A DNA stretch of 43,468 nt from an uncultured Gammaproteobacteria bacterium (GTDB lineage Bacteria > Patescibacteriota > Microgenomatia > Levybacterales > GWA1-39-11), in NCBI GenBank assembly GCA_964490835.1, contig CAZBEA010000003.1:1-43468 (forward strand), written 5' to 3'. A program made the translations under genes and the position numbers. The notes under the pieces are model-generated. The model saw only the letters and a list, made by a program, of their open reading frames with translations, ran no database searches and had not been told where the DNA came from. Positions 20,185 through 36,878 of this stretch are shown here, piece by piece (the first letter of the stretch is position 1; every line of letters begins with the position of its first letter).

Positions 20185-20201
20185 ACTGAAAGATATTCAG
20201 T
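20185..20201 (+). terminator. Weak candidate intrinsic terminator after the sortase gene (overlaps the ftsZ stop codon)
   Basis: ACTGAA-AGATA-TTCAGT (6-bp stem) followed by TTCTCTGTCTT. A second short palindrome, CTCTA-GTC-TAGAG, sits at 20172-20184. The stem is AT-rich and short, so support is weak. Confidence 0.25.
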
Positions 20202-21309: not shown

Positions 21310-21375
21310 AGATAATTACATGAATCCTAGCACATCTAGAAATCATTTGCAACCAAGGCAGGAGGCGTTTTTAGA

Positions 21376-22662
21376 CTATGGAAGAAAATGTTTGATAAGT
21401 TTTTTTATACGATTCGATACCTGTGTAATTGGACCAAGCGAACCGATATTTATAAGGTTGTCGAGTGCTCCCCTCGTGTCTCTTCCGGCAAAATTTCGTC
21501 CGAATGCAAGAAGTCCAATAGCAGTTGCGTAGGAGGGATTCTCCACATCATCAATAAGACCGGTGATATTTTGGGGGTATGCAATTCTGACAGGCATTGC
21601 AAGCATGCGCTTCGCAGCATCTTCAGCTCCCACCGTAAGAGCTCCTCCGCCGGTTATGACAATTCCGGCAGGAGTCTGAGTCCCAAATCCGGATTTCTTA
21701 AGCTCAATCCCAACCATCGTAAAAAGCTCGTTGAGTCTGGGTCTAATAATTCCATCGACTAATGTTTTTTGAGATACTTTTCTCAGATCTTCTATAAGTC
21801 TTAACTCTGAAAGATCGATTTCATCAGTCTTTTCTGCGACCTCTTCCGGCCTCAGATGGCGAGGCTTTCTTAGTTTTTCGGATAAGAAAAGTTTTATTTT
21901 TTCAGCAGACTCAAGTGAAATTCTGAGACCTATCGCCAAGTCATTTGTTATATGTCGTGCGCCGATCGGAATTACTCTTGAATGAGCCAGTGCTCCATCG
22001 ACAAAAATACAGATATTGGTAATTCCGGACCCAATATCCACCATGACTACACCAAGCTCTTTTTCTGTCTCTGTAAGTGTCGCAAGAGAAGAAGCAAATC
22101 CGGAAAAAACAAGTGAAGAAACCTGAACACCGGCTTCTGACTCAAGGACTCTATGTATATTTTTTACCGAAACTGCGTTCACAGAAATAATATGGGTCTC
22201 GACCTCAAGCCTCACTCCAGTCATTCCGATTGGATCTTTAATTCCACCTTCTCCGTCTACTGTAAAAGTTCGCGGGAGAACATGGATGATATTCGAAGAG
22301 GTAGGCTTGGAGATAGCACCGGCCGCCTCAAGAACCCTATCTACGTCGGAGGGACCAATTTCGCCATTTGCTTGTGAGATTGCAACAATTCCTTTTGAAT
22401 TTTGAGATTCGACATGAACACCTGAAACCGAAACGAAGGCACGATCGATATTATATCCAGCCATTCGCTCCGATGCATCAAGCGCCTGATTAACAGCACC
22501 AGCCGCTTCTTCTATATCAACAATCTGACCTTTTCGAATACCACGGGAGGGAATTTCTGCAACGCCGAGAACGTTAATCGTTTCTTCTTGCACTTGCCCG
22601 ATCACTGCTGCGATCTTGGATGATCCAATATCAACACCAACAACTATTTGGTTGTCACGCAT
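21376..22662 (-). CDS. ftsA: Cell division protein FtsA
   Basis: Actin-fold phosphate motifs VGVDIGSSKI and VMVDIGSGITN, plus GGGALT and a C-terminal amphipathic tail. The position next to ftsZ supports the call. Confidence 0.92.
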   Translation of the reverse strand: MRDNQIVVGVDIGSSKIAAVIGQVQEETINVLGVAEIPSRGIRKGQIVDIEEAAGAVNQALDASERMAGYNIDRAFVSVSGVHVESQNSKGIVAISQANGEIGPSDVDRVLEAAGAISKPTSSNIIHVLPRTFTVDGEGGIKDPIGMTGVRLEVETHIISVNAVSVKNIHRVLESEAGVQVSSLVFSGFASSLATLTETEKELGVVMVDIGSGITNICIFVDGALAHSRVIPIGARHITNDLAIGLRISLESAEKIKLFLSEKLRKPRHLRPEEVAEKTDEIDLSELRLIEDLRKVSQKTLVDGIIRPRLNELFTMVGIELKKSGFGTQTPAGIVITGGGALTVGAEDAAKRMLAMPVRIAYPQNITGLIDDVENPSYATAIGLLAFGRNFAGRDTRGALDNLINIGSLGPITQVSNRIKKLIKHFLP

Positions 22663-22677
22663 AATAATAGTTTAGCC

Positions 22678-23103
22678 TCATTTTACAAACTTTACAATAG
22701 GCCTATTATACCGCAGGTCAATGACCGTCGGAATCTTATTCTCTATTGTAAGTCGTTGCAAAATACTTTGCAAAGAGGAAATCTGCCAATTTATCTCTTT
22801 TTCGTACGAAAAATACACCTGTGTTCCTTTATCCAGATCTGCTCTGAGTGAGCCTGATGATGAAGATATCGTTACTGTTGTGTATTGAATTTTTGCTTGA
22901 GCCAGAGCATCGCGGATATCGCTAATCGAGTAAGTGGCGTTTGGATTTATGATTTTACCCGAATGGTTTGAAAATTTAGGAATTGAGAAAGAGAAATCTC
23001 TGAAAAACAAATAAAGCAACAAAGAAATAAGAAATACAACTACTATAGACGTGGAAAGAATAACAATTTTCTTAACCTTTTTGCGTGTGCTTCTTCTTTT
23101 CAT
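22678..23103 (-). CDS. ftsQ: Short FtsQ/DivIB-like bitopic protein (TM anchor + ~100-aa periplasmic domain)
   Basis: The gene is in the ftsQ position between murG and ftsA. The basic N-terminus MKRRSTRKKVKK is followed by one TM helix. The C-terminal ...VIDLRYNRPIVKF resembles the end of the FtsQ beta domain. The ORF-track start at 23115 is TTG; the ATG is at 23103. Confidence 0.5.
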   Translation of the reverse strand: MKRRSTRKKVKKIVILSTSIVVVFLISLLLYLFFRDFSFSIPKFSNHSGKIINPNATYSISDIRDALAQAKIQYTTVTISSSSGSLRADLDKGTQVYFSYEKEINWQISSLQSILQRLTIENKIPTVIDLRYNRPIVKFVK

Positions 23104-24172
23104 AAAGGTCCACAATTACTTGTACAAGATTTTCCACTGCATGGGAATGGGTAGTTTTTTCCTTTATTCGTAATTGTTCAACTTTTTGTAGCGAAGAAAA
23201 AAATTGTACGCTTGAAAGGTTGCTTTGATTTATAACAATTGCATTGCCATTACGTTCTAAAAATTCTGCATTCATTTTTTGCTCGCCATTTTGCCCTCCC
23301 GGCAGAGGAATAAGTATTGCCCTCTTAGATAGCGCCATAAGCTCTGCTACCGTATTTGCTCCTGCCCGAGAAACAACAACGTCTGCGATAGAATAAATCC
23401 AGCCTATCTCATCCGGCGTTACATATTTTTTTACGATGTAGCAATCCTTCTGGTCGTCAGTTAGTGAATTTTTAATTGTTGTCATTTTATCAAAATCGCC
23501 AAATTCCGAACTGTCACCAGTCTGATGAATCAACACAAACTTCACAAGAATTTCCGTAAGATTATTTTGTACAAAATTATTGAGAACGTGCGCTCCCGTA
23601 CTTCCTCCGGTAACATATAATATTTTTTTGCCCGGTGGAACAGATGTTTTTTTAATAATTTTAAAAACTTCTTCACGTATCGGAAGTCCTGTTAGGACCG
23701 TTTTGTGTTTTGGGAAAAACTTTTCCGACTCTTTATACGAAATACAAATAATGTCTGAAAATTGAGCGGCAATTTTATTTGCAAATCCTATATGCAAAGT
23801 TTGCTCATGCAGAATAACCGGTATTCTTAGCGATTTTGCGGCCAAAACTACCGGGGGTGCAATATACCCGCCAAAAGTAACCACAATATCTGGTCGCTCT
23901 TTTTTCAAAATTGCAATTGCATGAATTAACCCGCCTGGAATTTTAAGAATAGAAGGAATAGTGTGTTTTGTAATTTTTCTTTGTAACCTTCCGGTCGGTA
24001 GATCTATAAAACGAACACCTTCGTCTCTACATATTGTAAATTCTAAGGATTCGGCAGTATCACCTTCAAAAGCATATCTTCTTCCGACAACAACAACTTC
24101 GTGCTTTTTTTGCATTTTCTGAATAAGTGCGTATGCTGGAGAAAAGTGACCACCCGTTATAAGTATTTTCAT
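23072..24172 (-). CDS. murG: Undecaprenyldiphospho-muramoylpentapeptide beta-N-acetylglucosaminyltransferase
   Basis: MKILITGGHFSPAYAL (G-loop 1), VTGGSTGAH, and the GT28 C-terminal pattern RAGANTVAEL...P...GEQ..NA. Confidence 0.9.
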   Translation of the reverse strand: MKILITGGHFSPAYALIQKMQKKHEVVVVGRRYAFEGDTAESLEFTICRDEGVRFIDLPTGRLQRKITKHTIPSILKIPGGLIHAIAILKKERPDIVVTFGGYIAPPVVLAAKSLRIPVILHEQTLHIGFANKIAAQFSDIICISYKESEKFFPKHKTVLTGLPIREEVFKIIKKTSVPPGKKILYVTGGSTGAHVLNNFVQNNLTEILVKFVLIHQTGDSSEFGDFDKMTTIKNSLTDDQKDCYIVKKYVTPDEIGWIYSIADVVVSRAGANTVAELMALSKRAILIPLPGGQNGEQKMNAEFLERNGNAIVINQSNLSSVQFFSSLQKVEQLRIKEKTTHSHAVENLVQVIVDLYEKKKHTQKG

Positions 24173-25248
24173 TTTTTCTTATGTACGAACCGAGAGATAT
24201 TTAATAGTATCCCCACTGCTATAAAATTAATCAAGAGAGATGATCCTCCGTAAGAAATAAATGGCAGAGGAACACCGGTTAAGGGGAGCAATACGACTTG
24301 CGATGCAAAATTAATAACAGCCTGCAGCGAGATAAATGTAACGATTCCGACTCCCAGTAATTTTGCGAATGGATCGGGGCTTGCCATAGCAATTAAAAAT
24401 CCGATAGCGGAAAAAATGATAAAGATTGTTATTAAAAAAATACTACCGATAAATCCTGTCTCCTCGGCGTATATTGCGAAAATCGAATCGGTTGTTGCCT
24501 CGGGTAAATAAGCATATTTCTGAATAGACTGTCCAATTCCAACCCCGGTAATACCACCAGATCCAAGCGCAATAAGGACTTGTTTTATATGATAATCGTT
24601 ATCGGATATATTCTCGTAATTAAAATTTTGGAAGGCCATCAGTCTTTGAGCGCGATATGGTTCAACTTTTATAAGAACTAAAACTCCTACAATTCCGATA
24701 ATAAATATGGTGGCCATATGCTTCAGCGGTGCTCCGGATAGAAAATACAAAATAACAGAAGTCGTAGCTACGATCATTGTCGTTCCTAAGTCTGGCTGCA
24801 GCATGACAAGTCCGCACATCACCCCAACAAGCAGACAAAAAGCCAACAGTCTGCCTTTTTCTTTCACAGAAAGCCACGCTGCAAGATACATTGAAAGAGT
24901 TATCTTAAGCGCTTCTGACGGCTGCATGACAAAAAGCCCAAAATTGATCCATCTTCGTGCACCCTTCAATTCAAGTCCGATTCCCGGTATCAGAACAGCA
25001 AGGAGTAGTACTGTAGTAACAACAAGAATGGGAACAATGTATTTCTTGTACAGCGTATACGGAATTCGGGAAATTACAAGACACAGAAGTAATCCCGCAA
25101 TGAAATACCCCGCCTGGAATTTTACAAAATGATACTTGTCTCCGATTTGAATCAAAGAGGAATAGGTTGAGGTTTCAAAAAGAATAAACAAACCGATACA
25201 TGTTAGAATGAAACTGGTCGATAATAGGGCAATACCAATTTTGTTCAT
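24169..25248 (-). CDS. ftsW: SEDS-family lipid II flippase/polymerase FtsW
   Basis: A 10-TM protein with QPSEALKI, PEATTDSIFA and LPFISYGGSS motifs. It lies between mraY and murG, with an ATGA overlap with murG. Confidence 0.85.
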   Translation of the reverse strand: MNKIGIALLSTSFILTCIGLFILFETSTYSSLIQIGDKYHFVKFQAGYFIAGLLLCLVISRIPYTLYKKYIVPILVVTTVLLLAVLIPGIGLELKGARRWINFGLFVMQPSEALKITLSMYLAAWLSVKEKGRLLAFCLLVGVMCGLVMLQPDLGTTMIVATTSVILYFLSGAPLKHMATIFIIGIVGVLVLIKVEPYRAQRLMAFQNFNYENISDNDYHIKQVLIALGSGGITGVGIGQSIQKYAYLPEATTDSIFAIYAEETGFIGSIFLITIFIIFSAIGFLIAMASPDPFAKLLGVGIVTFISLQAVINFASQVVLLPLTGVPLPFISYGGSSLLINFIAVGILLNISRFVHKKK

Positions 25249-25251
25249 GTA

Positions 25252-26271
25252 CTAAATGAGCGCCAGATACAAGCCGATAAGTGCAAAAACCATCCCCAAC
25301 AGCCATGCACGCATTACTACCTTTGGCTCTTCCCATCCTTTTTGTAGAAGATACAGATGGAACGGGGCAACTGGAAATGCTTTTTTCTTTAGGAATTTTT
25401 TTGAGAGAATTTGTATGAGTGATGAGGCAACTTCAATGACAAATACCCCACCGATAAAACCTATCGCAATGGTCTTACCCGTTAACAGCCCTATGACGGC
25501 AAGTGCCGCGCCGAAGGCAAGGGAACCGACATCACCCATCCATAACCTTGCCTTATAAATATTGAAATACAAAAACGCAGCAACCGAACCAAGAAGTACC
25601 GACGTAAATAATCCAAGCGATGGATCAAGAATATTTGCAGAAATTGCTAAAAATGCAATAAGACATATGACAAACAACCCAGCAGATAACCCATCCAACC
25701 CATCCGTTATATTTACGGCGTTAACAAAAGAAACAATAACAAAAGCAGCAAATAGAATATACATCGCTCCAATTGCGACATCACCAAACCAATGTATATA
25801 CACAAAATTATATCCGTTCATATACAGAATTGTTCCGATAATAATTGCCAAAATCCATTGAATAATAAATTTATATTTGAATCTAAGACCGAAAAATGGT
25901 GAGCTTTTACCATTTAAAATTTTCTTAAGATCGTCATAAAAACCCAGAGCACCAAAACCTATAAATGCAAATAGCAATGTTGCGATTTCCCAAAGCTTAA
26001 CGTTAACTCCCAAGATACCATAAGCAAACAAGGTTAGAAATGTAACAACACCGATAACAAGTATTCCCCCACCAAAAGGAGTACCGACCTTCCAATCGCT
26101 CATTTTGTCAAAAAGTGGAGTTCTTTTATTAAATATGTCTCTCGTTTTTTGTTTGCGTCGTTGCAATTTTATTCGATAGAGAAAATCGATAAAAGGCACA
26201 AGACATACCGCAGTCACAAAAAATGATAGGATTGTAAATCCGAGTAATCTTTCCATACGAATGATCCTCAT
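25252..26271 (-). CDS. mraY: Phospho-N-acetylmuramoyl-pentapeptide transferase
   Basis: NAVNITDGLDGL and MGDVGSLAFGAAL motifs in a polytopic protein. The ORF-track start at 26298 is TTG. ATGs occur at 26271 and 26256; the latter has a GAGGA SD 7 nt upstream and may be the true start. Confidence 0.92.
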   Translation of the reverse strand: MRIIRMERLLGFTILSFFVTAVCLVPFIDFLYRIKLQRRKQKTRDIFNKRTPLFDKMSDWKVGTPFGGGILVIGVVTFLTLFAYGILGVNVKLWEIATLLFAFIGFGALGFYDDLKKILNGKSSPFFGLRFKYKFIIQWILAIIIGTILYMNGYNFVYIHWFGDVAIGAMYILFAAFVIVSFVNAVNITDGLDGLSAGLFVICLIAFLAISANILDPSLGLFTSVLLGSVAAFLYFNIYKARLWMGDVGSLAFGAALAVIGLLTGKTIAIGFIGGVFVIEVASSLIQILSKKFLKKKAFPVAPFHLYLLQKGWEEPKVVMRAWLLGMVFALIGLYLALI

Positions 26272-26299
26272 TATATCACCATATAGTATGGTGATCAAA

Positions 26300-27325
26300 C
26301 TATCTCAAAAAGTGTCCTTTTCGAACAGTTGTCAGAAAGTCTATGATAAAGGTAATCCAGTATCTTTTTGAAACCGGAAGATCTAAGGAGTGTAGGTAAT
26401 CAACTTGAAATCCACCAAATCCTTTCTTAAAACTTGAGAGACCGTACCATGGATTTTTGGGGTTTTCATCTTTTGAGATTCCCCAAAAATCATAATATTT
26501 AATCCCGTTTTTCCTGGCCTCTTGGATCGCATGCCATTGGAGAAGATACGATGCCGCGGTTTTTCTTCCAACTTCGCTTGTTGCACCATGTCTATAGATT
26601 GCTGAATTTTGAGAATAAATGATAAGAGCCCCTGCAAGAATTTTGTTTTGTTGTTGCGCCAAATAGAGTTTTGCTTTGCCGATTTTTTGAAAATACTCAA
26701 ATTCTTCTCTTATTAAATTATGTGGAACAAACCCTTTTATTAGAGCAGTTTGCTGATATATTTTTTCAAATTTTTTAAATGAGTCAGCTGTCAATTCCGA
26801 TTGGACTTCAATCCCTTCTTTCTCACCTCTTCTAATCATATATCGGGTCGTTTTTCGCATTCCGGAAAGAATGGTGCTTTCTTCTTGATCCAAATCAAGC
26901 ACCCATCTGTTTTCGGCGTCAATATTATAAACCGGGGAAAACCGAAAACCGGCACTTTTCAGAAATTTTTCAGAATGTGTACCCTCTCGAATCAAAGGAC
27001 TTATTCTTACAAAGCTGGCATTCTTTTCTTCAGCAAGTTTTTTCAGAAAGAAAGCAAGTTCTCGAGCATAAGTTTTTGTCCATTTTTTAAGAACCGGTCC
27101 ATGACGAACGTGTAAAAAATGACCTCGTTTTGCTTTTTTCTCGAATATTTGCATTACACCGATTCGAGATTTTCCGTCAAAAATATCATACTGTTCAACT
27201 TTGGTATGATGGTTTTTTTCTATCTCGCCCCATTCAAGTGTCTGAAAAAATGGAGAGTTTTCACTCAGCTCAAGCGCTTGGTCCCATGTCTTTTTATCAA
27301 TTTGCCTATGAAATTTGAGACTCAT
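26300..27325 (-). CDS. FemAB-family aminoacyl-tRNA-dependent peptidoglycan peptide-branch transferase, short FemX-like form
   Basis: Motifs FFQTLEWGEIEK, ...HVRHGPV..., RKTTRYMIRRGEKEGIEV, AIYRHGATS, ASYLLQWHAIQEARKNGIKYYDFWGI and SSFKKGFGG. At 341 aa it has no long coiled-coil insert. Confidence 0.8.
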   Translation of the reverse strand: MSLKFHRQIDKKTWDQALELSENSPFFQTLEWGEIEKNHHTKVEQYDIFDGKSRIGVMQIFEKKAKRGHFLHVRHGPVLKKWTKTYARELAFFLKKLAEEKNASFVRISPLIREGTHSEKFLKSAGFRFSPVYNIDAENRWVLDLDQEESTILSGMRKTTRYMIRRGEKEGIEVQSELTADSFKKFEKIYQQTALIKGFVPHNLIREEFEYFQKIGKAKLYLAQQQNKILAGALIIYSQNSAIYRHGATSEVGRKTAASYLLQWHAIQEARKNGIKYYDFWGISKDENPKNPWYGLSSFKKGFGGFQVDYLHSLDLPVSKRYWITFIIDFLTTVRKGHFLR

Positions 27326-28526
27326 ATTTTTTTATGGACTTAATAACTCTATTGATGTCTTTTTTGTTAAGTGTGGGGTTTGTTGGAAGATTGATGATTT
27401 GCTTTGCAACTCTTTCTGCAACCGGACACGAATGTGATTTATACTTTAAATCCTTGAGTGGTATCGATTTTGGATCTATACAATTCGAGTACCAATTACC
27501 AAGATATATTCTGTCTTTCTTTGCGAAATTCAGTATCTGGTCTCTTTTTACCGAGAAATATGGGACCCTCAACAATGGAGAGTCTTTTCGAAGATTTACA
27601 CCGACCAAATAATTTTTTTTGTACATGCCTACCCACTCAATTCTTTTTTTGTTAAAATCCTCAACCGAGTTTAATTGCATAAAAATGAGTCGGGCAAGTG
27701 CATTCGGATATTTTTGAATAGAATCGTTGCCTAATCTTAACTCATTTCCGACAGGACTTGGAACAATTTTTGACGCCCTATACATTTTTGTAGCTGCTTT
27801 TCCCAGGAAAGGATGTATGTAGAAAAGCGCATAAATCAAATATGTAATTGCCGGGTGGAGCAGGTATCTTACTATCTCGTGCGGTTCTGGAAATGGGAGC
27901 AATTCATATTCTTCAAGAATTTTTGAAGAAAGAAATGAATCCTGAACTATCAGCGCCCCACCGGTTACCGAAGAAATCGCTTTATCTCGACCAAAACTAA
28001 AAAGGTACCCGTCAGCATTCATCTTTAAATACTCCTCCGGATCAAAAATATGAGCTAAATCTAAGAGTAGGAATATTCCCTTCTCACGAGCTAATTTTTT
28101 AATTTTTACAAATTCCGGTGTAATTCCAAAAGTAGATTGCAAGATAACAACTTTTGTTTTTGGGGTGACTTTCCTCTCAAATTCGGAGTAATCCATAGAT
28201 AACGTTTTTTCTGAAATATCAGCATAAATGGGAACCGCACCGGTCCAGAGAATCGGCTGCACAACAGCAGCGCATGTAAATGCCTGAACAATTACTTCAT
28301 CACCCTTTGAAACATTAAGACTTCTAAGCAACATATACTCACCTTCTCGTGCCCGCATAAAAAGAAAAACGTTTGGAGATTGAAATAATTTTTTTAAATG
28401 GAGACCGGTGAAGTTAAGCCAATCACCTTGCTGCAATTCAGCAACTCGGAAAAGAGATCTTATTGATGCAGCAACATCAATAAGTCGAAGGTTTGGGGCA
28501 AGTCCGCATGAAATGAGGCGTTTCAT
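27306..28526 (-). CDS. DegT/DnrJ/EryC1/StrS-like fold-type-I PLP-dependent enzyme (divergent)
   Basis: GDEVIVQAFTCAAVVQPILWTGAVPIYADI, ...VVILQSTFG..., LLDLAH and FSFGRDKAISSVTGGALI (the putative PLP lysine) follow the DegT aminotransferase layout, but with non-canonical residues. ATGA overlap with murF and a 20-nt overlap with the FemX-like gene. Confidence 0.65.
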   Translation of the reverse strand: MKRLISCGLAPNLRLIDVAASIRSLFRVAELQQGDWLNFTGLHLKKLFQSPNVFLFMRAREGEYMLLRSLNVSKGDEVIVQAFTCAAVVQPILWTGAVPIYADISEKTLSMDYSEFERKVTPKTKVVILQSTFGITPEFVKIKKLAREKGIFLLLDLAHIFDPEEYLKMNADGYLFSFGRDKAISSVTGGALIVQDSFLSSKILEEYELLPFPEPHEIVRYLLHPAITYLIYALFYIHPFLGKAATKMYRASKIVPSPVGNELRLGNDSIQKYPNALARLIFMQLNSVEDFNKKRIEWVGMYKKNYLVGVNLRKDSPLLRVPYFSVKRDQILNFAKKDRIYLGNWYSNCIDPKSIPLKDLKYKSHSCPVAERVAKQIINLPTNPTLNKKDINRVIKSIKKYESQIS

Positions 28527-30133
28527 TTCCCAAAAACCTTCCTTTTATGGACAAGTGAAAAAGCTCCAAATGACTCTTTTCCTTCAAAAACCGCACCGTC
28601 TTTTTCCGAAAGTGAATTAATAAATTCTGCGATTTCACTCTGAGACGCAACTTTAAGAACCAAATCAGAATCGATTTTCTTGGCACCTTGAGTAATAGCG
28701 GAGAGGAAATTTTTATTCGTTAAAAAAAGATAATCGCATAATTGAGCAGCTTTTTTTCCTACTTCAAAATGATGCTTAACAGCCGAATCCCCAAGCTCTA
28801 TCATTGGCTGAAGCACCAAAACCTTTTTTCCTTTAAATATTTGCAAGTAATCGAGAGCTGAGTCGACAGAAGCAGGATTTGCATTAAAAGTATCATCAAT
28901 TACTACGGTATTTTTAGAAGTCAGGTATGGTTCCATTGTTTTGTTGAAGGGAATTATTTGTAAAAGTGCGTTTTTTATTTCAGCAACGGTCATACCCATT
29001 TTTTCTGCTATCCAAATACCCGGTAATACATTTTCAATATGATGTCTTCCGACAAGGTTTGTTCTGAATGATCCAAATTCACGACCCCTAATAAATACCT
29101 TAAATTTTAAAGATGTCGGCAGAACCTTTATGTCAGTTGCCGTAATATCCGCTGAGTGCGTTCCACCAACTTTGTATAAAATTTTTTTCTTTCTTGTTCT
29201 CTTGTATAATTTCAAAGCATTCGCGTTATTTCCATTAAAAAGCGAAATGCCATTATTTGGAATAGAATCTATTAACTCGTATTTTGCTTTCATTGTATTC
29301 TCAACTGAACCAAAGAGAGAAACATGCTGTTCATTTACTGCTGTCAAAATTCCAATGAGAGGACGGACCATATTGCACATATATTGAATTTCACCTCGCT
29401 TATATGCTCCCATCTCTACTATGAAAATTTTTGTTTTAGTGCTTACATCTGAAAGAAGCGATCTGGCAATTCCAATCGGAGTATTAAACGTGTCTTTTGT
29501 TTTGGCAACGTTAAATTTTGAAGAAAGTATTGTATGCATGTATTCTTTTGTCGAACCTTTACCATAACTTCCTGTGATTCCAATAACCATAAGATTTGAA
29601 AGCTTTTCCCTTTTTTTTATAGCTTTATTTATTGTTATATCTCTTGAAAAATCTGCAGGAATTGAAAAAAGTAATATTTGTATCCCTATAATAAATGGGA
29701 TCATAATATCAACGACCAAGAGCCAAAGTGCAATATCAATTGGCGCAAAAATATATAAAAGAATCGATAATGAAAATGTAACTATTGCTATGAAAATAAT
29801 TTTCGTAGTGAATTCTGGAATTTTTACTTTCCTATGAAGGAAGAATTGCTTTTTATCAAGAAGTATATAAGCGAATAATAAAAGAGCGGCAAACGTGTAT
29901 AAAGTTAAAATATTGTAATAAATAAGAAGAACATAGCTAAAAATTAGCAATAACCTAAGAGCTGTAATTCTTCCAAAAACAAGCTCTCTTCCTTGAATCG
30001 TCTCTCGAACATGAACCATAAGCCTATCCATTCGGTATTCTTTCATTTGCCACAGATGTAACCAAAAAAGAATTTTATATATTACCTGAATAAAGAACAG
30101 GACTGTGAGAGGAAAAATGAGTAAATTAAGCAT
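28523..30133 (-). CDS. murF: UDP-MurNAc-tripeptide--D-alanyl-D-alanine ligase fused to an N-terminal polytopic membrane domain
   Basis: Residues ~1-165 contain about 5 hydrophobic helices and the motif LWQMKEYRMDR. The P-loop GITGSYGKGST lies at ~185-195. Further motifs are FNTPIGIARSLL, VEMGAYKRGEIQYM, AVNEQHVSLFGS and VIDDTFNANPASV, typical of MurF. Confidence 0.85.
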   Translation of the reverse strand: MLNLLIFPLTVLFFIQVIYKILFWLHLWQMKEYRMDRLMVHVRETIQGRELVFGRITALRLLLIFSYVLLIYYNILTLYTFAALLLFAYILLDKKQFFLHRKVKIPEFTTKIIFIAIVTFSLSILLYIFAPIDIALWLLVVDIMIPFIIGIQILLFSIPADFSRDITINKAIKKREKLSNLMVIGITGSYGKGSTKEYMHTILSSKFNVAKTKDTFNTPIGIARSLLSDVSTKTKIFIVEMGAYKRGEIQYMCNMVRPLIGILTAVNEQHVSLFGSVENTMKAKYELIDSIPNNGISLFNGNNANALKLYKRTRKKKILYKVGGTHSADITATDIKVLPTSLKFKVFIRGREFGSFRTNLVGRHHIENVLPGIWIAEKMGMTVAEIKNALLQIIPFNKTMEPYLTSKNTVVIDDTFNANPASVDSALDYLQIFKGKKVLVLQPMIELGDSAVKHHFEVGKKAAQLCDYLFLTNKNFLSAITQGAKKIDSDLVLKVASQSEIAEFINSLSEKDGAVFEGKESFGAFSLVHKRKVFGK

Positions 30134-30848
30134 ACTTCTCTATATATGAATCGACAATATCTGCAAATTGCTTCGGATCTTGATATGGCAGGGAATGCCC
30201 GAAACCCTTTACTTTTCTTGCGTGTTTTACTTGATTTATTTTTTGTATTTTATCCAGATCACTCGCGGGTGTCAAACGGTCAAGTTCACCCCATATAAGA
30301 ACAACCGGAGCTGTGATGTTTTGAAAATAAGGAATGAGAGATTCTCCAATTATATTTTTGAAAGTATTTTTTTTCTCGCCTGTTTTTACATAATCATACT
30401 CTCCAATAATTCTATAGAGTGCTTTTCTGGATAAATGTGCCCACGACGCAGGCAAGATCACAAATGGAATCTTCAGAGTTTTTGCAGCAACAAGACTCAC
30501 TCTTTGTTTGAGTCCGTAATGACGGATAATGGGAACACCAGTTAAGACTAACAATGCAACATTCTCATTATTGAAAGAAGTATACTGAACCCCTACTCTT
30601 CCCCCAAAAGAATGTCCGACGATAATATGTTTGGTGATCTTATTCTTCTCAAGAAATTTTGTATAGAATTCTGTAAAGTCCGAGAGGGTCATCGAAGATT
30701 TTGTCGCAATTTCTTTTCCAAATCCGGGAAAATCCGGGGAGAAAACTTTATATCCTTTTTTTTCTAAATATTTTCTAAATTCGGAGTATCGTTCTCCTGA
30801 AAGACCCCAACCATGGAGAATAACTACAGTATGATCTTGTTTTTTCAT
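30126..30848 (-). CDS. Alpha/beta-fold hydrolase (Ser-Asp-His triad) of unknown substrate
   Basis: VVILHGWG, the nucleophile elbow VGHSFGG, GELDRLT and GFGHSL. Overlaps the murF start by 8 nt. Confidence 0.75.
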   Translation of the reverse strand: MKKQDHTVVILHGWGLSGERYSEFRKYLEKKGYKVFSPDFPGFGKEIATKSSMTLSDFTEFYTKFLEKNKITKHIIVGHSFGGRVGVQYTSFNNENVALLVLTGVPIIRHYGLKQRVSLVAAKTLKIPFVILPASWAHLSRKALYRIIGEYDYVKTGEKKNTFKNIIGESLIPYFQNITAPVVLIWGELDRLTPASDLDKIQKINQVKHARKVKGFGHSLPYQDPKQFADIVDSYIEKYA

Positions 30849-30862: not shown

Positions 30863-31483
30863 TTACCGCTCCTTAATTATACTAGCTTCGGGGTGACATC
30901 CTTTCACTGAAACGAGCGGATAAACAAGTGAATTCTTTCCAAGTAGAGTTCCGGGATTTAGAACAGCATTTACTCCCACGGTAACCCCATCACCCACAAC
31001 TGCACCAAATTTTTCAAGACCGGTATCGATCAGTATTTCTTCGTTTTTCACTTTTACAGGAGCTCTATCGAGCCTGAGGTTTGCAATAATTGCACCTCCT
31101 GAAATATTCACATTATTTCCAATGACACTATCACCAACGTAATTTAAGTGACCAATACTCGTATCATTAAGGATTATTGAGTGTTTTATTTCCCCACCAT
31201 GCCCAATGAAAACATTATCTCCTATAACAACTCCGTTACGTAATAAAACTCCATGACCAATGATACAGTTTTTGCCTATTACGGCTTTCCCCTCAATGCG
31301 AGCCGTATCCTGAATGGTGCTGGTCGGGTCAATTACAATCGTTTCCTTTTGTGCTTCTGCCAACTTTTTATCAATGTATAAGTCGAGCTTTTTTAGCGCT
31401 TCCCAAACAGAATGGTTTGAATTAAAAAGATCTTTGTGATCGAATTTTTCTAAATCAAAGAAATCGGGTGCTAAAAAATTCAT
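30863..31483 (-). CDS. Left-handed beta-helix (hexapeptide-repeat) acyltransferase, GlmU C-terminal-domain-like
   Basis: Repeated [LIV]G..... hexapeptides run from ~residue 60 to the end (IGKNCIIGHGVLLRNGVVIGDNVFIGHGGEI...). ATGA overlap with the upstream nucleotidyltransferase. Confidence 0.6.
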   Translation of the reverse strand: MNFLAPDFFDLEKFDHKDLFNSNHSVWEALKKLDLYIDKKLAEAQKETIVIDPTSTIQDTARIEGKAVIGKNCIIGHGVLLRNGVVIGDNVFIGHGGEIKHSIILNDTSIGHLNYVGDSVIGNNVNISGGAIIANLRLDRAPVKVKNEEILIDTGLEKFGAVVGDGVTVGVNAVLNPGTLLGKNSLVYPLVSVKGCHPEASIIKER

Positions 31484-32223
31484 AATTTAGTCAATAAATC
31501 CTCTGCCTCCCGTAATTCATCCGGAGTATTTATCCCGCGCCATATTACATTCTCTGCCGTATATGTATGAACATTTAACTTATTTTGCAAGGCCAGCTCA
31601 ATGAGGCTTGTTAAGTAGTACTCACGGGTAGCGGGACTTTTTGGGATTTTGTTAATATAGCTCTTTAAAAATTTCTTTGAAAACACAAAGCACCCGGGAT
31701 TTATTTCTGAAATTTTTTTCTGAGCTTCTGTCGCATCTTTTTCTTCAACTATTCCTATAAGTGTCCCACTCTCGTCCCTATCAATTCTCCCGAGCCCTTT
31801 TGGATCGGAAACTTTGAGAGTCAGAAATGTAACGTCACTTTTCATTTCACGATGTTTTTTGAGAAGAGACGAAAGAACGTCTGAACTATACGAGGTGTCA
31901 TCGCCGTAAAACACGAAGACATCAATTACATCGTCCGGAACAATCTTTAAACCTTTTTTTACAGCATGCCCGGTACCAAGTCTTTTACTCTGATAGGCAT
32001 AGAGTACCGAATCACCTACTAATTTTTTAACCGATTCCTGCGCATGACCTACTACGAGAACAAGATATGGAATACCGGTTTGTCTGAGATTCTTCACGAT
32101 CCGAAGTATTATTGGTTCACCTGAAAGACGCAGCGTAACTTTATTAGCCTTTTTAGCGTTCATTCGTTTGCCTTTTCCAGCTGCCAAGATAATCGCGCAT
32201 GTATTTTCAAAAACACTACTCAT
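31480..32223 (-). CDS. Sugar-1-phosphate nucleotidyltransferase, GlmU N-terminal-domain-like
   Basis: AIILAAGKGKRM (the LAAGkG.RM pyrophosphorylase loop), YQSKRLGTGHAV and FYGDD. At 247 aa it has no LbH domain attached. Confidence 0.7.
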   Translation of the reverse strand: MSSVFENTCAIILAAGKGKRMNAKKANKVTLRLSGEPIILRIVKNLRQTGIPYLVLVVGHAQESVKKLVGDSVLYAYQSKRLGTGHAVKKGLKIVPDDVIDVFVFYGDDTSYSSDVLSSLLKKHREMKSDVTFLTLKVSDPKGLGRIDRDESGTLIGIVEEKDATEAQKKISEINPGCFVFSKKFLKSYINKIPKSPATREYYLTSLIELALQNKLNVHTYTAENVIWRGINTPDELREAEDLLTKL

Positions 32224-32225: not shown

Positions 32226-33548
32226 TTATTCATTTACAACTGAGATTTCTGCTCCTAAAGCCTCTAACCTTTCTTCAAAATTTTCATATCCTCTATCCAA
32301 ATGTTCTACGCCAAATATAATGCTCTCACCCTTTGCTAACAGAGCTGCAATAAGAAGTGTTGCTCCGGCTCTCAAATCAGCCATCGTGAGAACTGCGTTA
32401 TGAAGGATTGTTGGGCCAACTATTTTTATACCCTGCATCTTGTTAGAAAAATCATCGGTATCAAAATTATAAAAATCCGCAGGATTGCTCACTTCCGGTT
32501 TGAAGAATTCAATTTTTGCACCCATCTTATTTAATTCGCTTACATATTCAAATCTCTTCTCATATACGGTTTCATGAATTGTCGAAACTCCTTGGGCTTG
32601 AGTTGCAAGAATTGCCCATGGCCCCTGCCAATCTGTCATAAATCCGGGATGAATTCCGGTTGTAATATCAAGCGCTTTAAGCTGATCTTTTATATAAAAG
32701 GAGATTCCATTTTCACTCTCCTGATATTCTCCACCCGCCTTTTTAAATACTTTCAAGAATTCATCGATATGTTTTAGGTTGCCATTTTGTATTTGTATGG
32801 CACCGTCGTTCAAAGCCGATAAAATTGCCAAGGTCACGAATTCGTTTCTGTCTGTGGTGATCGTGAAATCCGTTCCCGATAGTTTTTCAACTCCCTCAAT
32901 CTCAATAATCCTATTCTCTTTTCTTGTAATTTTTGCTCCCATTTGATTTAGTAGCGCAATAAGGTCATCGATTTCCGGCTCAAGCGCTGCATTTTGGATA
33001 ACGGTTGTACCCTTGGCAAGAACACCGGCCAGGATAATGGTTTCGGTCCCTGTATGTGAATTTTTTATAAAAGATACTGTACCCCCGTGAAGCGATTCGG
33101 CGGATGCGTGAAAGTATCCATCGTCACTCGAATATTCAATATCTATTCCAAGCTCTCCAAGACCTTTAATGTGTCGGTCGATAGGTCGAGCCCCTAATCG
33201 ACAGCCCCCGGGATTGGGGACGCTTGCTTTTCCGGTTCTTGCAACAAGAGGTGCCAAAAACATAGTTGAAGTTCTAATACTTGCTCCAAGTTCTAGTGGA
33301 ATTTCATATTTGGAGATATTTTTTGCTTCGATGGTCACAACGTCATCCTCAAAATGCACGTCTCCACCCAAGTACTTTATGATTTCCACGAGCAGGAATA
33401 CGTCGCTGATTCTTGGTACGTTTCGCAATGTTACTTTTTCCTCGGTAAGACACGCGGCTATAAGTGCTTTGGTTATAACATTTTTAGCGCCCGAGACACG
33501 GATCGTACCTTCCAATTTTTTTCCACCATGGACAATGTATTTTTTCAT
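32226..33548 (-). CDS. murA: UDP-N-acetylglucosamine 1-carboxyvinyltransferase
   Basis: GGKKLEGTIRVSGAKN, the active-site loop PGGCRLGARPIDRH and C-terminal DLRAGATLLIAAL...HLDRGYE. Confidence 0.95.
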   Translation of the reverse strand: MKKYIVHGGKKLEGTIRVSGAKNVITKALIAACLTEEKVTLRNVPRISDVFLLVEIIKYLGGDVHFEDDVVTIEAKNISKYEIPLELGASIRTSTMFLAPLVARTGKASVPNPGGCRLGARPIDRHIKGLGELGIDIEYSSDDGYFHASAESLHGGTVSFIKNSHTGTETIILAGVLAKGTTVIQNAALEPEIDDLIALLNQMGAKITRKENRIIEIEGVEKLSGTDFTITTDRNEFVTLAILSALNDGAIQIQNGNLKHIDEFLKVFKKAGGEYQESENGISFYIKDQLKALDITTGIHPGFMTDWQGPWAILATQAQGVSTIHETVYEKRFEYVSELNKMGAKIEFFKPEVSNPADFYNFDTDDFSNKMQGIKIVGPTILHNAVLTMADLRAGATLLIAALLAKGESIIFGVEHLDRGYENFEERLEALGAEISVVNE

Positions 33549-34975
33549 TTATTGATCAGCTCTTTACCGAGAGTATATACGTCTCCTGCCCCCATTGTTA
33601 TGACAACGAACTCAGAATCCGTATGGCCGAGAACGTATTCTACCACACTGGACCTGTCTTCGAGAAGCACGGCGCTTGAATTATTTTTTTGAAATCCCGG
33701 CAAAATATTAAATGTATCCGAATTTTCTTGCTCCCTTTTGGTAATAAAAACCGGGAGCAAAACGAGCTGCTCAACGCCTGCAAAAGAATAAGAAAATTCA
33801 TCTAACAAAGCTGTTGTCCGAGATAGAGTGTGCGGCTGAAAGATACAAAGAATTTTTTTATTGGGATATGCCAATCGAACAGCAGAAAGCGTTTTTGTTA
33901 TCTCCTCAGGATGGTGAGCATAGTCATCGATAACAACTGCCCCGTTATTTAGATTGCCGACAATCTCAAACCTTCTTTTAGTACCTGTAAACACCTGTAG
34001 TGCACTTTTTATTCTCTCCCGATCTATTCCGATTTGTTCACATAATGCTATAACTCCTAAAGCATTGAGGGTATTATGAACTCCGGGAATATGTATCGTA
34101 AATTCATCATTACTGCCGTTTTTTCTGAGGACTTGAAAGGTAATCGACCTTCCATTTTCTTTATAATCACCTAACGCGTAGTCGTTATTTGTGGCAATTC
34201 CGTAGGTAACAATATTTCGATCCCCCAATGTTTCGATGATCGACAAAATCCGTTTGTCGTCTCCATTTACGACAATAAAACCATTTGGGTCAACCTGTGT
34301 CATAAAATCTGCAAAGACTTTTTCAATCTGATCAATTGATTCATAAAAATCAGGGTGATCAAAATCGATATTATTTATAATCTGGATATATGGAAATTGA
34401 TAGAGAAGTTTTGGCTTCCGATCGTATTGAAGTTCTGACACGTATTCATCCGCCTCAGCAATAAAATATTCTCCACTTCCATAATGACCCGGATTTCCTA
34501 TGGGAAAAAGTGAACTCGTTCCAACAACATAACTCGGATCAAGTCCCAGCTCCCTAAAGACGGTTGCAAGCATTCCCGAAATCGTCGTTTTGCCATGAGA
34601 TCCTGCTATAGATATTCCTTTGAACGACCTCCCAAATACATCTCCCTTCATAAATTCCCCCACTGCCTGTCCATGTGTTAAAACCCTGATATCTTTTGTT
34701 ATCGCCCACTTTACCTGTGGATTATCAAATCCTCCATGAGCGGAAGTTGTAATGACCAAAACTTCTTTCGGATCAACACCATTCATGAAATTGGCAATTT
34801 CTTCTTCCGCAAAAGAATGAGTATAGAGAATTTCATTTTGTCGGAGAACTTCATCTGTAATAAATTCACTTTCAATATCCGACCCTCGCACTTCTATTCC
34901 TGCTCCTTTCGCGACTAACGCCAGAGAGGTCAATCCTACCCCTTTAATTCCTACAAAAAAAATCTTTTTATACAT
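33545..34975 (-). CDS. murC: UDP-N-acetylmuramate--L-alanine ligase
   Basis: N-terminal Rossmann FFVGIKGVGLTSLA, P-loop IAGSHGKTTISGML, DDYAHHPEEI and the C-terminal domain. Confidence 0.92.
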   Translation of the reverse strand: MYKKIFFVGIKGVGLTSLALVAKGAGIEVRGSDIESEFITDEVLRQNEILYTHSFAEEEIANFMNGVDPKEVLVITTSAHGGFDNPQVKWAITKDIRVLTHGQAVGEFMKGDVFGRSFKGISIAGSHGKTTISGMLATVFRELGLDPSYVVGTSSLFPIGNPGHYGSGEYFIAEADEYVSELQYDRKPKLLYQFPYIQIINNIDFDHPDFYESIDQIEKVFADFMTQVDPNGFIVVNGDDKRILSIIETLGDRNIVTYGIATNNDYALGDYKENGRSITFQVLRKNGSNDEFTIHIPGVHNTLNALGVIALCEQIGIDRERIKSALQVFTGTKRRFEIVGNLNNGAVVIDDYAHHPEEITKTLSAVRLAYPNKKILCIFQPHTLSRTTALLDEFSYSFAGVEQLVLLPVFITKREQENSDTFNILPGFQKNNSSAVLLEDRSSVVEYVLGHTDSEFVVITMGAGDVYTLGKELINK

Positions 34976-35645
34976 ATCTCATTTCTGCTACTGTCACAAA
35001 CCGTTCTGTTTTATTACCTTTCCGATACGAAAAATAACGCTCGTCTTCTTTGGTACATCGCTCTAATTGTTGCACATTTGAGGCTGCAATGCCATTGGTA
35101 ATTAATTTTCTATATACTGCATCCCGAATGTTTATGTGATATTGATCTTTTTTTTCATAAACAGATTCAGGAAAGGCATTTTTAAAATGTTCATATCTTG
35201 CAGAATCAACCGCATAACATTCTTCACAGATGCATGGGCCCAAAAACGCATATACATTTTGAAATTCGGAATTATGCTTTCTTAGGAAATCTATTCCAAC
35301 ATCAATAATTCCTTTTAAAATTCCTCTATATCCACAATGTTGAACGATAAGAATTTTTTGCAATGGATCATATAGTACAAGTGGGAGACAATCGGCTGTT
35401 TTAATAACCAAACAGCGCGAGGATGCTTCTGTCCAAACCGAATCACCCATGACTTGCTCGCCAACAGCATGAGATAACAAGATTCCATGGTCCTGCGACA
35501 TGCCGGAATACAGAGAAGACATGCTATTTTGAGACAAAAAACGATCAAGATTATGAATACCTGCAGAACTACTCATCTCTCCGTCACGTATATCCGAAAT
35601 GGCGATTACTATTTTTGTAGAAAATATTTCTTTTTCGAATATCAT
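34968..35645 (-). CDS. pgeF: YfiH/PgeF-family (DUF152, laccase-domain) peptidoglycan editing factor
   Basis: KTADCLPLVL and VQHCGYRGIL... (His-Cys-His centre pattern). The size (225 aa) fits the family. 8-nt overlap with murC. Confidence 0.75.
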   Translation of the reverse strand: MIFEKEIFSTKIVIAISDIRDGEMSSSAGIHNLDRFLSQNSMSSLYSGMSQDHGILLSHAVGEQVMGDSVWTEASSRCLVIKTADCLPLVLYDPLQKILIVQHCGYRGILKGIIDVGIDFLRKHNSEFQNVYAFLGPCICEECYAVDSARYEHFKNAFPESVYEKKDQYHINIRDAVYRKLITNGIAASNVQQLERCTKEDERYFSYRKGNKTERFVTVAEMRYV

Positions 35646-36836
35646 TTACAATGAAGATAATATACACTCCCGGTCGCTCCAATCATATTCCGTCCCTTTA
35701 ATGTTCATAGATTTCTCATGCCCCTTACCGGTTACCAAAACCAAATCATTTTTTTGCGCAATTGAAAGAGCTTTTTGAATCGCCTCTCCTCTATCAACGA
35801 TTACAGAGTACTCTTTTTGGGAATTTTTATTAAGACTTTTTGTTTTGTTAAATTTCTTATGTATCCCCTCGGCAATTTCCTCACATATTTGAACCGGGTC
35901 TTCAAATCTTGGATCTTCACTCGTCAAAATAATCACATCAGCATATTTGGATGAGCATTCGCCCATGAATGGTCTTTTTGTGCGATCCCTGTCCCCAGCG
36001 CTGCCAAACACATGAATTATTCTCCCATTTACTTTTTTTCTGAGATGAGAAAGAATCATATCAATCGAATTGGGAGTATGTGCAAAGTCTACCATGACTT
36101 GAAAATCATCAAGATATACGTACTCTTGCCTGCCTTCGGGGAGAACAAAGTTGGATAGTTTTTGTTCGGCGTCTTTGGCAACATCTACGGAAACTTGGCA
36201 AACCGCCGCGATTGCAGCAAGTCGATTTGAGGTGTTAAAGTCGTCTCCACTGATTCCGACTTTTTGGGGATAAAAATCAGCGTTACGGTTTTTTGTAGAG
36301 TATGTCACAACCCTTTTGCCTATCAACTTCTGAATAAGATGTTCATACGATGAATCGTCTTTGTTGAGAATTGAAACTTTGGATAATTTGAGTAATTTCA
36401 ATTTTGCTGCTCGGTATTTTTCAATTGTCTTATGATAATCAAGGTGTTCATGGGTAATATTTGTAATTACGCCCACATTGAAGGGGATTCCATATGCCCT
36501 ATTCTGATCAAGAGCATGGGATGTCACTTCCAATACCAAATGGGTACATCCTTCTTTTTTTATTTGCTTAATGATTCTCTGCAATGCAAATCCTGACGGA
36601 GTTGTGACATGAAAACCCGTATCGATCAATTTACCATTTACATATGCTCCAATTGTGGAGACTACCGCAACTTTATACCCGCTTGCTTGGAGAAGATGAT
36701 AAATTAAATTGGCCGTTGTAGTTTTACCATCAGTTCCTGTTACACCAATAACAAATAGGCTTTTTGCCGGATAATTAAAACCAAGCGCCGCAACAAGCGA
36801 CTGAATAAGATGATAATAATTTTTGATCTTTTGCAT
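35646..36836 (-). CDS. murE: MurE-type Mur ligase (UDP-MurNAc-L-Ala-D-Glu:diamino acid ligase) lacking the usual N-terminal domain
   Basis: GVTGTDGKTT (P-loop at residues 31-40), LVLEVTSHALDQNR, ITNITHEHLDYH, VDFAHTPNS, FGSAGDRDRTKRPFMG and LTSEDPRFEDP. The ORF cannot extend upstream, because only 42 nt separate it from the ftsI stop. Confidence 0.8.
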   Translation of the reverse strand: MQKIKNYYHLIQSLVAALGFNYPAKSLFVIGVTGTDGKTTTANLIYHLLQASGYKVAVVSTIGAYVNGKLIDTGFHVTTPSGFALQRIIKQIKKEGCTHLVLEVTSHALDQNRAYGIPFNVGVITNITHEHLDYHKTIEKYRAAKLKLLKLSKVSILNKDDSSYEHLIQKLIGKRVVTYSTKNRNADFYPQKVGISGDDFNTSNRLAAIAAVCQVSVDVAKDAEQKLSNFVLPEGRQEYVYLDDFQVMVDFAHTPNSIDMILSHLRKKVNGRIIHVFGSAGDRDRTKRPFMGECSSKYADVIILTSEDPRFEDPVQICEEIAEGIHKKFNKTKSLNKNSQKEYSVIVDRGEAIQKALSIAQKNDLVLVTGKGHEKSMNIKGTEYDWSDRECILSSL

Positions 36837-36878
36837 GGGGCTATCTTATTATATTGCGGCACAATCTATCTTTCAATC

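Follow-up and report, generated by a model that had tools for sequence, protein, structure and literature searches.

Why does the division and cell wall (dcw) gene cluster of a bacterium of the candidate phyla radiation (CPR) carry a pyridoxal 5'-phosphate (PLP) enzyme and a FemX-like transferase between its Mur ligase gene and mraY, and what might these proteins do there? The question is raised by contig CAZBEA010000003.1 (GCA_964490835.1), of which positions 1 to 43,468 of the forward strand were analyzed (43,468 nt, hereafter the window). An earlier note, made from the sequence, had described in the window four adjacent genes for an alpha/beta hydrolase, a membrane-fused MurF, a DegT-like PLP enzyme and a FemX-like transferase. 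All are minus-strand open reading frames (ORFs) at the positions it gave, their identities are upheld by Pfam and NCBIfam matches, and the assignment of the host to the CPR was upheld as well. The four genes, here called the cassette, and the gene that follows them are:

30126-30848 (-), alpha/beta hydrolase; Pfam Abhydrolase_1 1.9e-24
28523-30133 (-), Mur ligase with an N-terminal transmembrane (TM) region (TM-MurF, 536 aa); Pfam Mur_ligase_M and Mur_ligase_C, NCBIfam murF
27306-28526 (-), DegT-like PLP enzyme (DegT, 406 aa); Pfam DegT_DnrJ_EryC1 (PF01041) 2.3e-37
26300-27325 (-), FemX-like transferase (Fem, 341 aa); Pfam FemAB 6.9e-36
25252-26298 (-), mraY; Pfam Glycos_transf_4, NCBIfam mraY 2.5e-54

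The genes belong to one long minus-strand dcw operon that runs from about 40.1 kb down to 20.2 kb of the window, in the order mraZ, rsmH, ftsI, murE, pgeF, murC, murA, the N-terminal half of GlmU, the left-handed beta-helix (LbH) half of GlmU, alpha/beta hydrolase, Mur ligase, DegT-like, FemAB-like, mraY, ftsW, murG, ftsQ-like, ftsA and ftsZ. Overlaps that had been claimed at the three internal junctions of the cassette were each read in the sequence: 8 nt between hydrolase and MurF (ATGCTTAA), an ATGA overlap of 4 nt between MurF and DegT, and 20 nt between DegT and Fem (ATGAGTCTCAAATTTCATAG). The four genes are thus translationally coupled and, as had been supposed, likely to be co-translated. 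There is no translational coupling of mraY to the upstream cassette. The Fem stop codon is TAG, and a TTG candidate start of mraY lies 1 nt further on; translation more probably begins at an ATG near 26271 or 26256, and the gap is then the 28-43 nt reported previously. Promoter-like and terminator-like matches within 25.0-32.3 kb showed no excess over the shuffled expectation. The top promoter-like match of the region, a sigma-70-like TTGATC-17-TATAAT with a TG extension at 26270-26298 (-), falls in the Fem-mraY gap and is a possible internal promoter for mraY-ftsW-murG. The mraY product scores 184.9 bits with NCBIfam, slightly under the cutoff of 192.05, and GC content is even across the region.

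The DegT-Fem pair across the Patescibacteria

More than 1,200 proteins of the collection searched are closely related to the DegT-like protein, and those with a name come nearly all from Microgenomates or other Patescibacteria. A pattern scan with one genome per GTDB species found a DegT-like relative in at least 568 species, with taxon labels that include Levy-, Gottesman-, Roizman-, Woese- and Daviesbacteria, Paceibacterota, and Magasanik-, Uhr-, Andersen-, Harrison-, Dojka- and Peregrinibacteria, among others. The linkage recurs, with the overlaps retained, in at least 568 species-level genomes, nearly all from CPR bacteria that are ultra-small and uncultivated, and therefore is not confined to the contig on which it was first noticed. 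Among the loci carrying a CPR-type dcw operon with the cassette are ENA-derived metagenome-assembled genome records titled 'uncultured Gammaproteobacteria bacterium' (L006, L010, L012, L015, L017, L019 and many more); these titles look like placeholder or wrong taxonomy.

Gene order was counted in 80 fetched loci, whose ORFs were labelled with the window's own proteins. The order hydrolase-MurF-DegT-Fem is found in most of them. Fem follows DegT in essentially all loci with room for it, TM-MurF precedes DegT in about 50 of 68, and the hydrolase lies directly before TM-MurF in 45 of 49. Estimated across loci, the median gap is -4 nt at the hydrolase/MurF, MurF/DegT and DegT/Fem junctions and about 400 nt between Fem and mraY. 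Identical order and overlaps are seen in relatives at just 33-42% identity, and reciprocal look-ups from MurF homologues and from Fem homologues retrieve the same hydrolase-MurF-DegT-Fem unit. The conserved unit is therefore not murF-degT-femX-mraY as such: DegT and Fem form the invariant core, and mraY follows Fem in only 22 of the 54 loci with room.

The partners of this core vary. In about 12 loci the gene that overlaps the DegT start encodes not MurF but a soluble protein, about 330 aa long, that has a transglutaminase core (PF01841), so that a transglutaminase-type protein replaces hydrolase and MurF upstream of DegT (L020, L024, L028, L030, L033, L053, L063, L064, L071, L073, L077 and L078). 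The possibility that these partners share the membrane domain of TM-MurF or its motif was rejected, as they are soluble and the motif is absent. DegT comes immediately after the hydrolase in L038 and L061. In loci of the Gottesman type, three or four genes lie between DegT and Fem and encode a metallo-beta-lactamase-fold hydrolase, a small four-TM 'Phage_holin_4_2' protein, and a CvpA/CAP or other protein (L090:3223-5994, L091:4047-5996, L045:12199-12870, L038:11107-11523 and L061:11152-11553). A homologue of diacylglycerol/undecaprenol kinase (DAGK, PF01219) is found between Fem and mraY at L023:9744-10145 and in 13 other loci, and at L090:7068-7442 and L091:7067-7441. DegT and Fem stand together amid housekeeping genes in L035 and L047, and in these two loci and L078 they are distant from MurF. 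With so much variation in the partner genes, the invariant core is DegT and Fem, usually accompanied by a hydrolase-fold partner. Where the cassette lies outside dcw, its neighbours are still genes of the cell wall and division: ftsI, ftsQ, ftsA, Ddl, MurI, MurD and DAGK. An E. coli DdlB probe of the 1.34 Mb of fetched DNA detected a single Ddl, an ATP-grasp protein at L073:1459-2355 (+), encoded directly upstream of, and overlapping, a transglutaminase-DegT-Fem set.

Gene fusions tie the proteins together more closely. They were sought by exhaustively searching 1.84 billion representative proteins with a profile, with over-long proteins among the best 150 matches confirmed by Pfam. DegT-FemAB fusions occur in five separate 50%-identity clusters (P0369, P0373, P0403, P0438 and P0462), MurF-DegT fusions in three (P0421, P0474 and P0479), and a transglutaminase-DegT fusion in one (P0414). 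In P0277, a single case that a frameshift could explain, TM-MurF is preceded in one protein by the N-terminal part of the hydrolase. Because neighbouring genes of the cassette overlap in different frames, the fusions would not arise as gene-caller artefacts without a real insertion or deletion. Domain order in the fusions is the gene order of the cassette, and such fusions are strong evidence, at the level of sequence, that MurF, DegT and Fem act together. Judged by gene arrangement, DegT and Fem are an obligate pair: they share an operon everywhere, their genes usually overlap, and they are fused in at least five lineages.

A MurF with a membrane domain and its accessory proteins

The 536-aa ligase matches NCBIfam murF at 6e-70, against 1e-19 for murC (Pfam Mur_ligase_M 8e-33, Mur_ligase_C 2.6e-08). 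The match begins at profile position 67, which indicates that the UDP-N-acetylmuramic acid (UDP-MurNAc)-binding N-terminal domain is absent, and because this domain is missing the score of 236.3 bits falls under the 288.6 cutoff of the NCBIfam murF model (TIGR01143). Alignment with the PDB MurF 4ziy (2.7e-33) runs from residue 173 to the end and shows the P-loop, GITGSYGKGSTKE, and the MurF-specific DDTxNANPxS motif as DDTFNANPASV. An AlphaFold2 model (pLDDT 90) has as its best Foldseek match the A. baumannii MurF 4qf5, with a root-mean-square deviation of 3.0 Å over 370 columns. The protein thus shares with known MurF enzymes the central and C-terminal domains (residues 178-536), the P-loop, the DDTxNANP motif and the position before mraY, and differs from them in having, in place of the UDP-binding N-terminal domain, a membrane domain of five predicted helices (residues 1-177) with a charged motif. 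Hydropathy places at least three hydrophobic helices within residues 1-130.

No match to the membrane domain was found in Pfam, NCBIfam or the PDB, nor by Foldseek of the model. In 43 homologues that are 43-76% identical to the window protein, the motif LWQxKEYRxDRxxxHxxETxQG is invariant; the invariant residues are L27-W-Q-x-K-E-(Y)-R-x-D-R...H41...T45..G48, P106, K111, W137 and P159. The predicted topology would place the invariant motif residues on the cytoplasmic side. By its conservation the domain is more than a mere anchor, possibly a new substrate-binding or partner-binding domain. Homologues of the whole protein (n=1835) are mostly 503-568 aa long, with a query coverage of 93-100%.

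One close relative (L089) separates the MurF from the rest of the cassette. Its cluster reads ftsI-murE-murC-murA-glmU_N-TM-MurF-mraY-ftsW-murG, with a TM-MurF 47% identical to that of the window; this cluster contains no hydrolase, DegT or Fem, and TM-MurF is the sole MurF candidate there. As TM-MurF stands directly before mraY in L089 without the three other genes, it is best regarded as the ordinary MurF of the clade. The earlier note had counted MurF within an accessory four-gene module, and this must be revised: on the evidence of these gene clusters the accessory part is hydrolase, DegT and Fem, and TM-MurF is probably the housekeeping MurF. The operon of at least one close relative dispenses with the three accessory genes. 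No canonical MurF was seen beside the TM form near the cassette in the fetched loci; of the candidates for a second one, the additional ligase that L079 has close to mraY proved to be MurD, and the extra ligase of L040 has no specific assignment. The latter is part of a segment directly after Fem (L040:12512-14562 (+)) that encodes a second Mur-family ligase (467 aa, central and C-terminal domains only) and a Peptidase_S51 protein of the dipeptidase E/cyanophycinase family.

The hydrolase is a cytoplasmic protein of 240 aa with an alpha/beta fold, and no NCBIfam equivalog matches it at or above its cutoff. The catalytic triad Ser80-Asp190-His218 and an HGW oxyanion motif are at least 90% conserved among 51 family members, and the nucleophile elbow, GHSFGG with S80, fits GxSxG. 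In one lineage a homologue of VanX-type M15 D-Ala-D-Ala dipeptidases is encoded divergently beside the cassette hydrolase (L003/L004:4687-5526 (-) and L083:10-954 (-)).

The DegT-like protein matches PF01041 at 129.5 bits. Its scores against the NCBIfam equivalogs (ArnB, PseC, WecE, DesI and others) are all far under cutoff, the best being 80.5 bits against 650 for DesI. An AlphaFold2 model with a pLDDT of 95.2 has as its nearest Foldseek neighbours ArnB, Spr1654, KabA/NtdA, WbpE and perosamine synthase (TM-score about 0.73, 16-19% identity; E 5e-21 for ArnB and others), and in a profile search of the PDB the matches are sugar aminotransferases (1e-56), the alignment being interrupted at profile positions 212-277. 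With the DegT/DnrJ/EryC1/StrS enzymes (ArnB, QdtB, PseC and NtdA/KabA) it shares the fold, the PLP lysine, the Asp and His/Gln cofactor residues and a C-terminal aromatic pair. Lys182 (in FSFGRDKAIS), Asp156 and His159 are invariant in 118 homologues, and W345-Y346 align with the H-Y pair of QdtB, so the earlier description of an enzyme that keeps its PLP-lysine context and is nevertheless divergent is borne out. Besides its low identity to the known enzymes, it departs from them in an invariant Arg60 at the usual phosphate-binding Ser/Thr position, in an invariant Arg180-Asp181 preceding the lysine (the GRDK motif), and in an insert of about 60 residues with a hydrophobic helical hairpin at about 215-252, in which H224, P225, G242 and K243 are conserved. 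At the positions of QdtB Tyr183 and Lys219, which are reported to be nucleotide-sugar contacts in the QdtB structure, the protein has Gly179 and the inserted hairpin. The linked or fused partners of the family are MurF, Fem and hydrolase-fold proteins, not keto-sugar makers: among the recurrent neighbours in about 90 loci there is no keto-sugar-forming dehydrogenase or dehydratase, which extends to the family what had been remarked of the window.

The transferase matches PF02388 at 124 bits against a cutoff of 24. Its family profile matches S. aureus FemX (6snr) at 4e-26, FemA (1lrz) at 6e-19 and Weissella FemX (1ne9) at 8e-15; the alignment to the S. aureus enzymes passes over the coiled-coil insert, in agreement with the earlier view of a short form. 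With the FemX equivalog NF047883 of NCBIfam it scores 54.9 bits, under the cutoff of 500. Phe299-Lys300 (in SFKKGFGG) is invariant in 15 family members and aligned with the FKK of S. aureus FemX and FemA, and an MRKTTRY motif is also invariant. The alignment of FemAB catalytic residues that had been called for thus finds the catalytic lysine retained, with the equivalence of F299-K300 to the residues of Weissella viridescens FemX (FemX_Wv) running via the S. aureus proteins, as the HMMER alignment to FemX_Wv ends at residue 298. Fem shares with FemX_Wv, FemABX and MurM the double-GNAT FemAB fold, with the short form, the catalytic Phe-Lys, and a gene tied to MurF or cell-wall genes. It differs in being always paired, and sometimes fused, with a PLP enzyme, and we know of no described Fem system paired with a PLP enzyme in this way. 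Lys305 has been described as the sole residue of the FemX_Wv active site that is reactive (PMC12945691), and Lys36 and Arg211 of that enzyme bind both UDP phosphates and both D-Ala residues (PMC2655667). Lys36 aligns with E36 of the cassette protein, where the adjacent K37 is mostly conserved.

By their profile scores, each component of the cassette is in a known superfamily and none is at the level of a curated equivalog.

Other genes of the operon and the window

The remainder of the operon comprises three further groups of genes:

32226-40138 (-), upstream part of dcw: mraZ, rsmH, ftsI, short murE, pgeF, murC and murA (Pfam, NCBIfam)
30863-32223 (-), split GlmU: nucleotidyltransferase 31480-32223 and LbH acetyltransferase 30863-31483 (NCBIfam)
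20197-25248 (-), downstream part of dcw: ftsW, murG, ftsQ-like single-TM protein, ftsA and ftsZ (Pfam, NCBIfam, hydropathy)

The nucleotidyltransferase is the N-terminal half of GlmU (NCBIfam 6e-57), and the LbH gene matches the C-terminal half of archaeal-type GlmU (4e-46). The two genes overlap in the window, and many relatives have a single protein of 420-590 aa. A route to an N-acylated amino sugar through DegT, the LbH acyltransferase and the nucleotidyltransferase, which had been offered as an alternative, is ruled out: the latter two are a split GlmU, fused in relatives.

The MurE of the window (35646-36836 (-), 396 aa) lacks the N-terminal UDP-binding domain, and there is no space for one upstream, where ftsI ends at 36879. 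The MurE proteins of relatives are uniformly short, about 400-440 aa. Two Mur ligases of the clade, MurE and TM-MurF, are therefore, by their sequences, without the usual nucleotide-binding domain. DNPR is the specificity motif of MurE enzymes that add diaminopimelate (DAP); at its position the MurE proteins of these lineages carry a conserved ED(P/Y)R, with the arginine retained. A PgeF/YfiH-type editing factor (Cu-oxidase_4) is encoded at 34968-35645 (-), between murE and murC, where it abuts murE and overlaps murC by 8 nt, and this placement of pgeF recurs in many relatives.

Glycyl-tRNA synthetase (GlyRS) precedes mraZ in the window (40807-42273 (-)) and in L034, and isoleucyl-tRNA synthetase (IleRS) lies downstream of ftsZ in the window (15441-18293 (-)); placements of GlyRS and IleRS recur in other Microgenomates loci (L034; L015, L029, L066, L069 and L070). 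As a conserved IleRS accompanies it, the placement of GlyRS suggests housekeeping synteny and is a weak hint of the amino acid donor. Between GlyRS and mraZ sits an ORF of 157 aa (40290-40763 (-)), which, like ORFs of 659 aa (295-2274 (-)) and 194 aa (42869-43453 (-)), has no Pfam or NCBIfam match. Besides the ftsW of dcw, the window has a second gene for a SEDS protein of the RodA/FtsW family (14372-15448 (-)), which follows IleRS directly and overlaps it. A sugar-modification and glycosyltransferase cluster at 3828-12217 encodes a C-methyltransferase, an RmlD-like reductase, a UDP-GlcNAc 2-epimerase, an epimerase/dehydratase of the short-chain dehydrogenase/reductase type, and GT2 and GT4 glycosyltransferases. 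The longest GT4 ORF overlaps tRNA-Val (12159-12231) at its 5' end, so that its true start is probably further in.

A putative role in branching the stem peptide

We give about an even chance to the proposal that the cassette tailors the peptidoglycan precursor at its last cytoplasmic step, through a membrane-associated complex of MurF, DegT and Fem that branches the stem peptide. TM-MurF, DegT and Fem would adjoin MraY as such a complex. MurF would finish UDP-MurNAc-pentapeptide, and Fem would move an amino acid, probably of the Gly, Ser or Ala type, from aminoacyl-tRNA to the free amino group of residue 3. This residue is probably DAP-like, because MurE keeps the arginine of the DNPR-type motif. 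The DegT-fold enzyme would hold the same UDP-MurNAc-peptide in its nucleotide-sugar pocket, and its PLP would act at the amino-acid-like free end also addressed by Fem, whether on the distal centre of residue 3 or on the alpha-amine of the added residue, by transamination or epimerisation, with Arg60 and Arg180 binding the carboxylate. The hydrolase, or a Cys-enzyme in its place elsewhere, may edit or trim wrong products, as PgeF does for MurC. The outcome would be a branched or capped stem peptide, optional within the clade. The chemistry of DegT in the cassette is inferred, and so are the donor, the acceptor and the role of the hydrolase. That a DegT-fold enzyme has shifted from keto-sugars to PLP chemistry (epimerisation, transamination or decarboxylation) on the free end of the stem peptide or on the aminoacyl donor, in partnership with Fem and MurF, is a tentative idea that we consider possible and rather doubtful.

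Several observations weigh against this scheme. All structural neighbours of the DegT-like protein use keto-sugars or inososes, and we know of no DegT-fold enzyme that acts on a peptide or on the amine of an amino acid. The role given to the hydrolase is pure analogy: PgeF/YfiH with MurC offers the likeness of a hydrolase encoded beside a Mur ligase in the same operon, and its fold is different. The hints of a donor given by seryl-tRNA synthetase (SerRS) and GlyRS may be housekeeping synteny. Fem matches FemX_Wv at about 8e-15 only, Arg211 of FemX_Wv aligns with the variable position 203 and is not conserved, and the proposed base Asp108 is Ser or Asn in the cassette family; the acceptor of Fem may thus be something other than UDP-MurNAc-pentapeptide, although action on this soluble precursor is plausible. 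The absence of hydrolase, DegT and Fem in L089 refers to its dcw cluster.

The nearest functional analogy to the cassette, in terms of domain logic, is DhpH of dehydrophos biosynthesis. Its N-terminal PLP domain makes an amine that its Fem-like domain, a Leu-tRNA transferase, acylates. A PLP enzyme is thus followed by a Fem-like aminoacyl-tRNA transferase in one polypeptide, as in the P0369 fusion; the corresponding genes of the window are separate, and DhpH belongs to Streptomyces secondary metabolism, the cassette to primary cell-wall synthesis across a whole radiation. This analogy underlies the main rival to stem-peptide branching, in which DegT aminates a sugar of the wall, either UDP-linked or lipid-linked (MurNAc, GlcNAc or a different wall glycan), and Fem aminoacylates the new amine, so that the glycan is modified and not the stem. 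It is the reading that fits the fold best, as the fold and all PDB neighbours are those of sugar aminotransferases. Fem-like enzymes are known to acylate amines: DhpH-C uses an amine as acceptor, in the form of L-Ala(P), and Orf11 glycylates streptothrisamine (PMC12945691). The DegT-Fem fusions share the domain order of DhpH, and a hydrophobic hairpin in DegT would suit a lipid-linked substrate. However, a linked keto-sugar-making dehydrogenase or dehydratase is missing from the roughly 90 loci, the partners that recur have hydrolase folds, DegT shows changes at the usual nucleotide-contact positions, and the MurF-DegT fusions together with the Ddl linkage point to the peptide end. Amination of a wall sugar is on balance less likely than branching of the stem peptide. 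The two further readings, in which the PLP enzyme works on the tRNA-borne donor or supplies a dipeptide, are weaker.

If the PLP enzyme acted on the aminoacyl-tRNA donor in the manner of SelA, SepSecS or SepCysS, for example by converting Ser-tRNA before Fem transfers the product, the obligate pairing and fusion of DegT and Fem would fit. DegT also has weak Pfam similarity to class V aminotransferases and Beta_elim_lyase, and SerRS is found 1-4 kb from the cassette in 10 non-Microgenomates loci, in three arrangements (L077, L078, L030, L027, L052, L057, L084, L033, L064 and L073). This linkage could be a hint of a Ser-tRNA donor or mere synteny: there is no SerRS linkage in Microgenomates, and L027 also has Lys- and Asp-tRNA synthetases nearby. 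Moreover, the family is clearly DegT, not SelA or SepCysS, and no tRNA-binding extension is seen in the DegT-like protein, and we regard action on the donor as improbable.

About as improbable is a supply of dipeptide, whereby DegT would make a D-amino acid from a keto acid, Fem would extend it with a residue from aminoacyl-tRNA, and MurF would add the resulting dipeptide instead of the D-Ala-D-Ala made by Ddl. The MurF-DegT and DegT-Fem fusions would suit such a pathway, as would the lack of ddl within Microgenomates dcw clusters and the VanX-like M15 peptidase beside the cassette in one lineage. Against this, L089 does without the cassette beside the same TM-MurF, a true Ddl is directly coupled to transglutaminase-DegT-Fem in L073, and DegT-Fem is also found far from MurF (L035, L047 and L078). 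An L-residue derived from tRNA would, furthermore, not suit D,D-transpeptidases at position 4. Finally, a chance insertion into this dcw operon of unrelated genes, such as a fragment of an O-antigen or secondary-metabolite cassette, for which the sugar-modification cluster at 3.8-12 kb of the window might be cited, has next to no probability and is refuted by the recurrence of the overlapping unit in at least 568 species and by the gene fusions, to which the uniform GC may be added.

Stem-peptide branching by MurF, DegT and Fem would belong with the Fem-type tailoring of peptidoglycan precursors. In the literature searched we found no account of a DegT-Fem pairing in cell-wall synthesis, of the fusions, of the alternation of hydrolase and transglutaminase, or of a MurF with a membrane domain, and the full text searched likewise holds no described function for this combination inside a dcw cluster, as the earlier note had remarked. 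It is a real possibility that the PLP step represents chemistry new to the synthesis of peptidoglycan.

Much of the diversity of bacteria belongs to the Patescibacteria or CPR, and to our knowledge their cell-wall chemistry is essentially unstudied. In hundreds of their species a compact cassette, coupled by gene position and by fusion, connects the final cytoplasmic step of peptidoglycan synthesis with a PLP enzyme and a tRNA-dependent transferase. The stem peptide is predicted from it to be branched, or modified in some other way, by means of three or four defined proteins. A MurF and a MurE without the UDP-binding domain raise the question of how these ligases recognise their substrates. 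Fem homologues that confer immunity to lysostaphin protect the wall, and by analogy modification of the stem could bear on how an epibiont protects its own wall from lytic enzymes. If the DegT-fold enzyme has indeed shifted from keto-sugars to PLP chemistry on the stem peptide or the aminoacyl donor, much of the CPR would have a peptidoglycan chemistry, and a precursor-editing step, unknown in cultivated bacteria.

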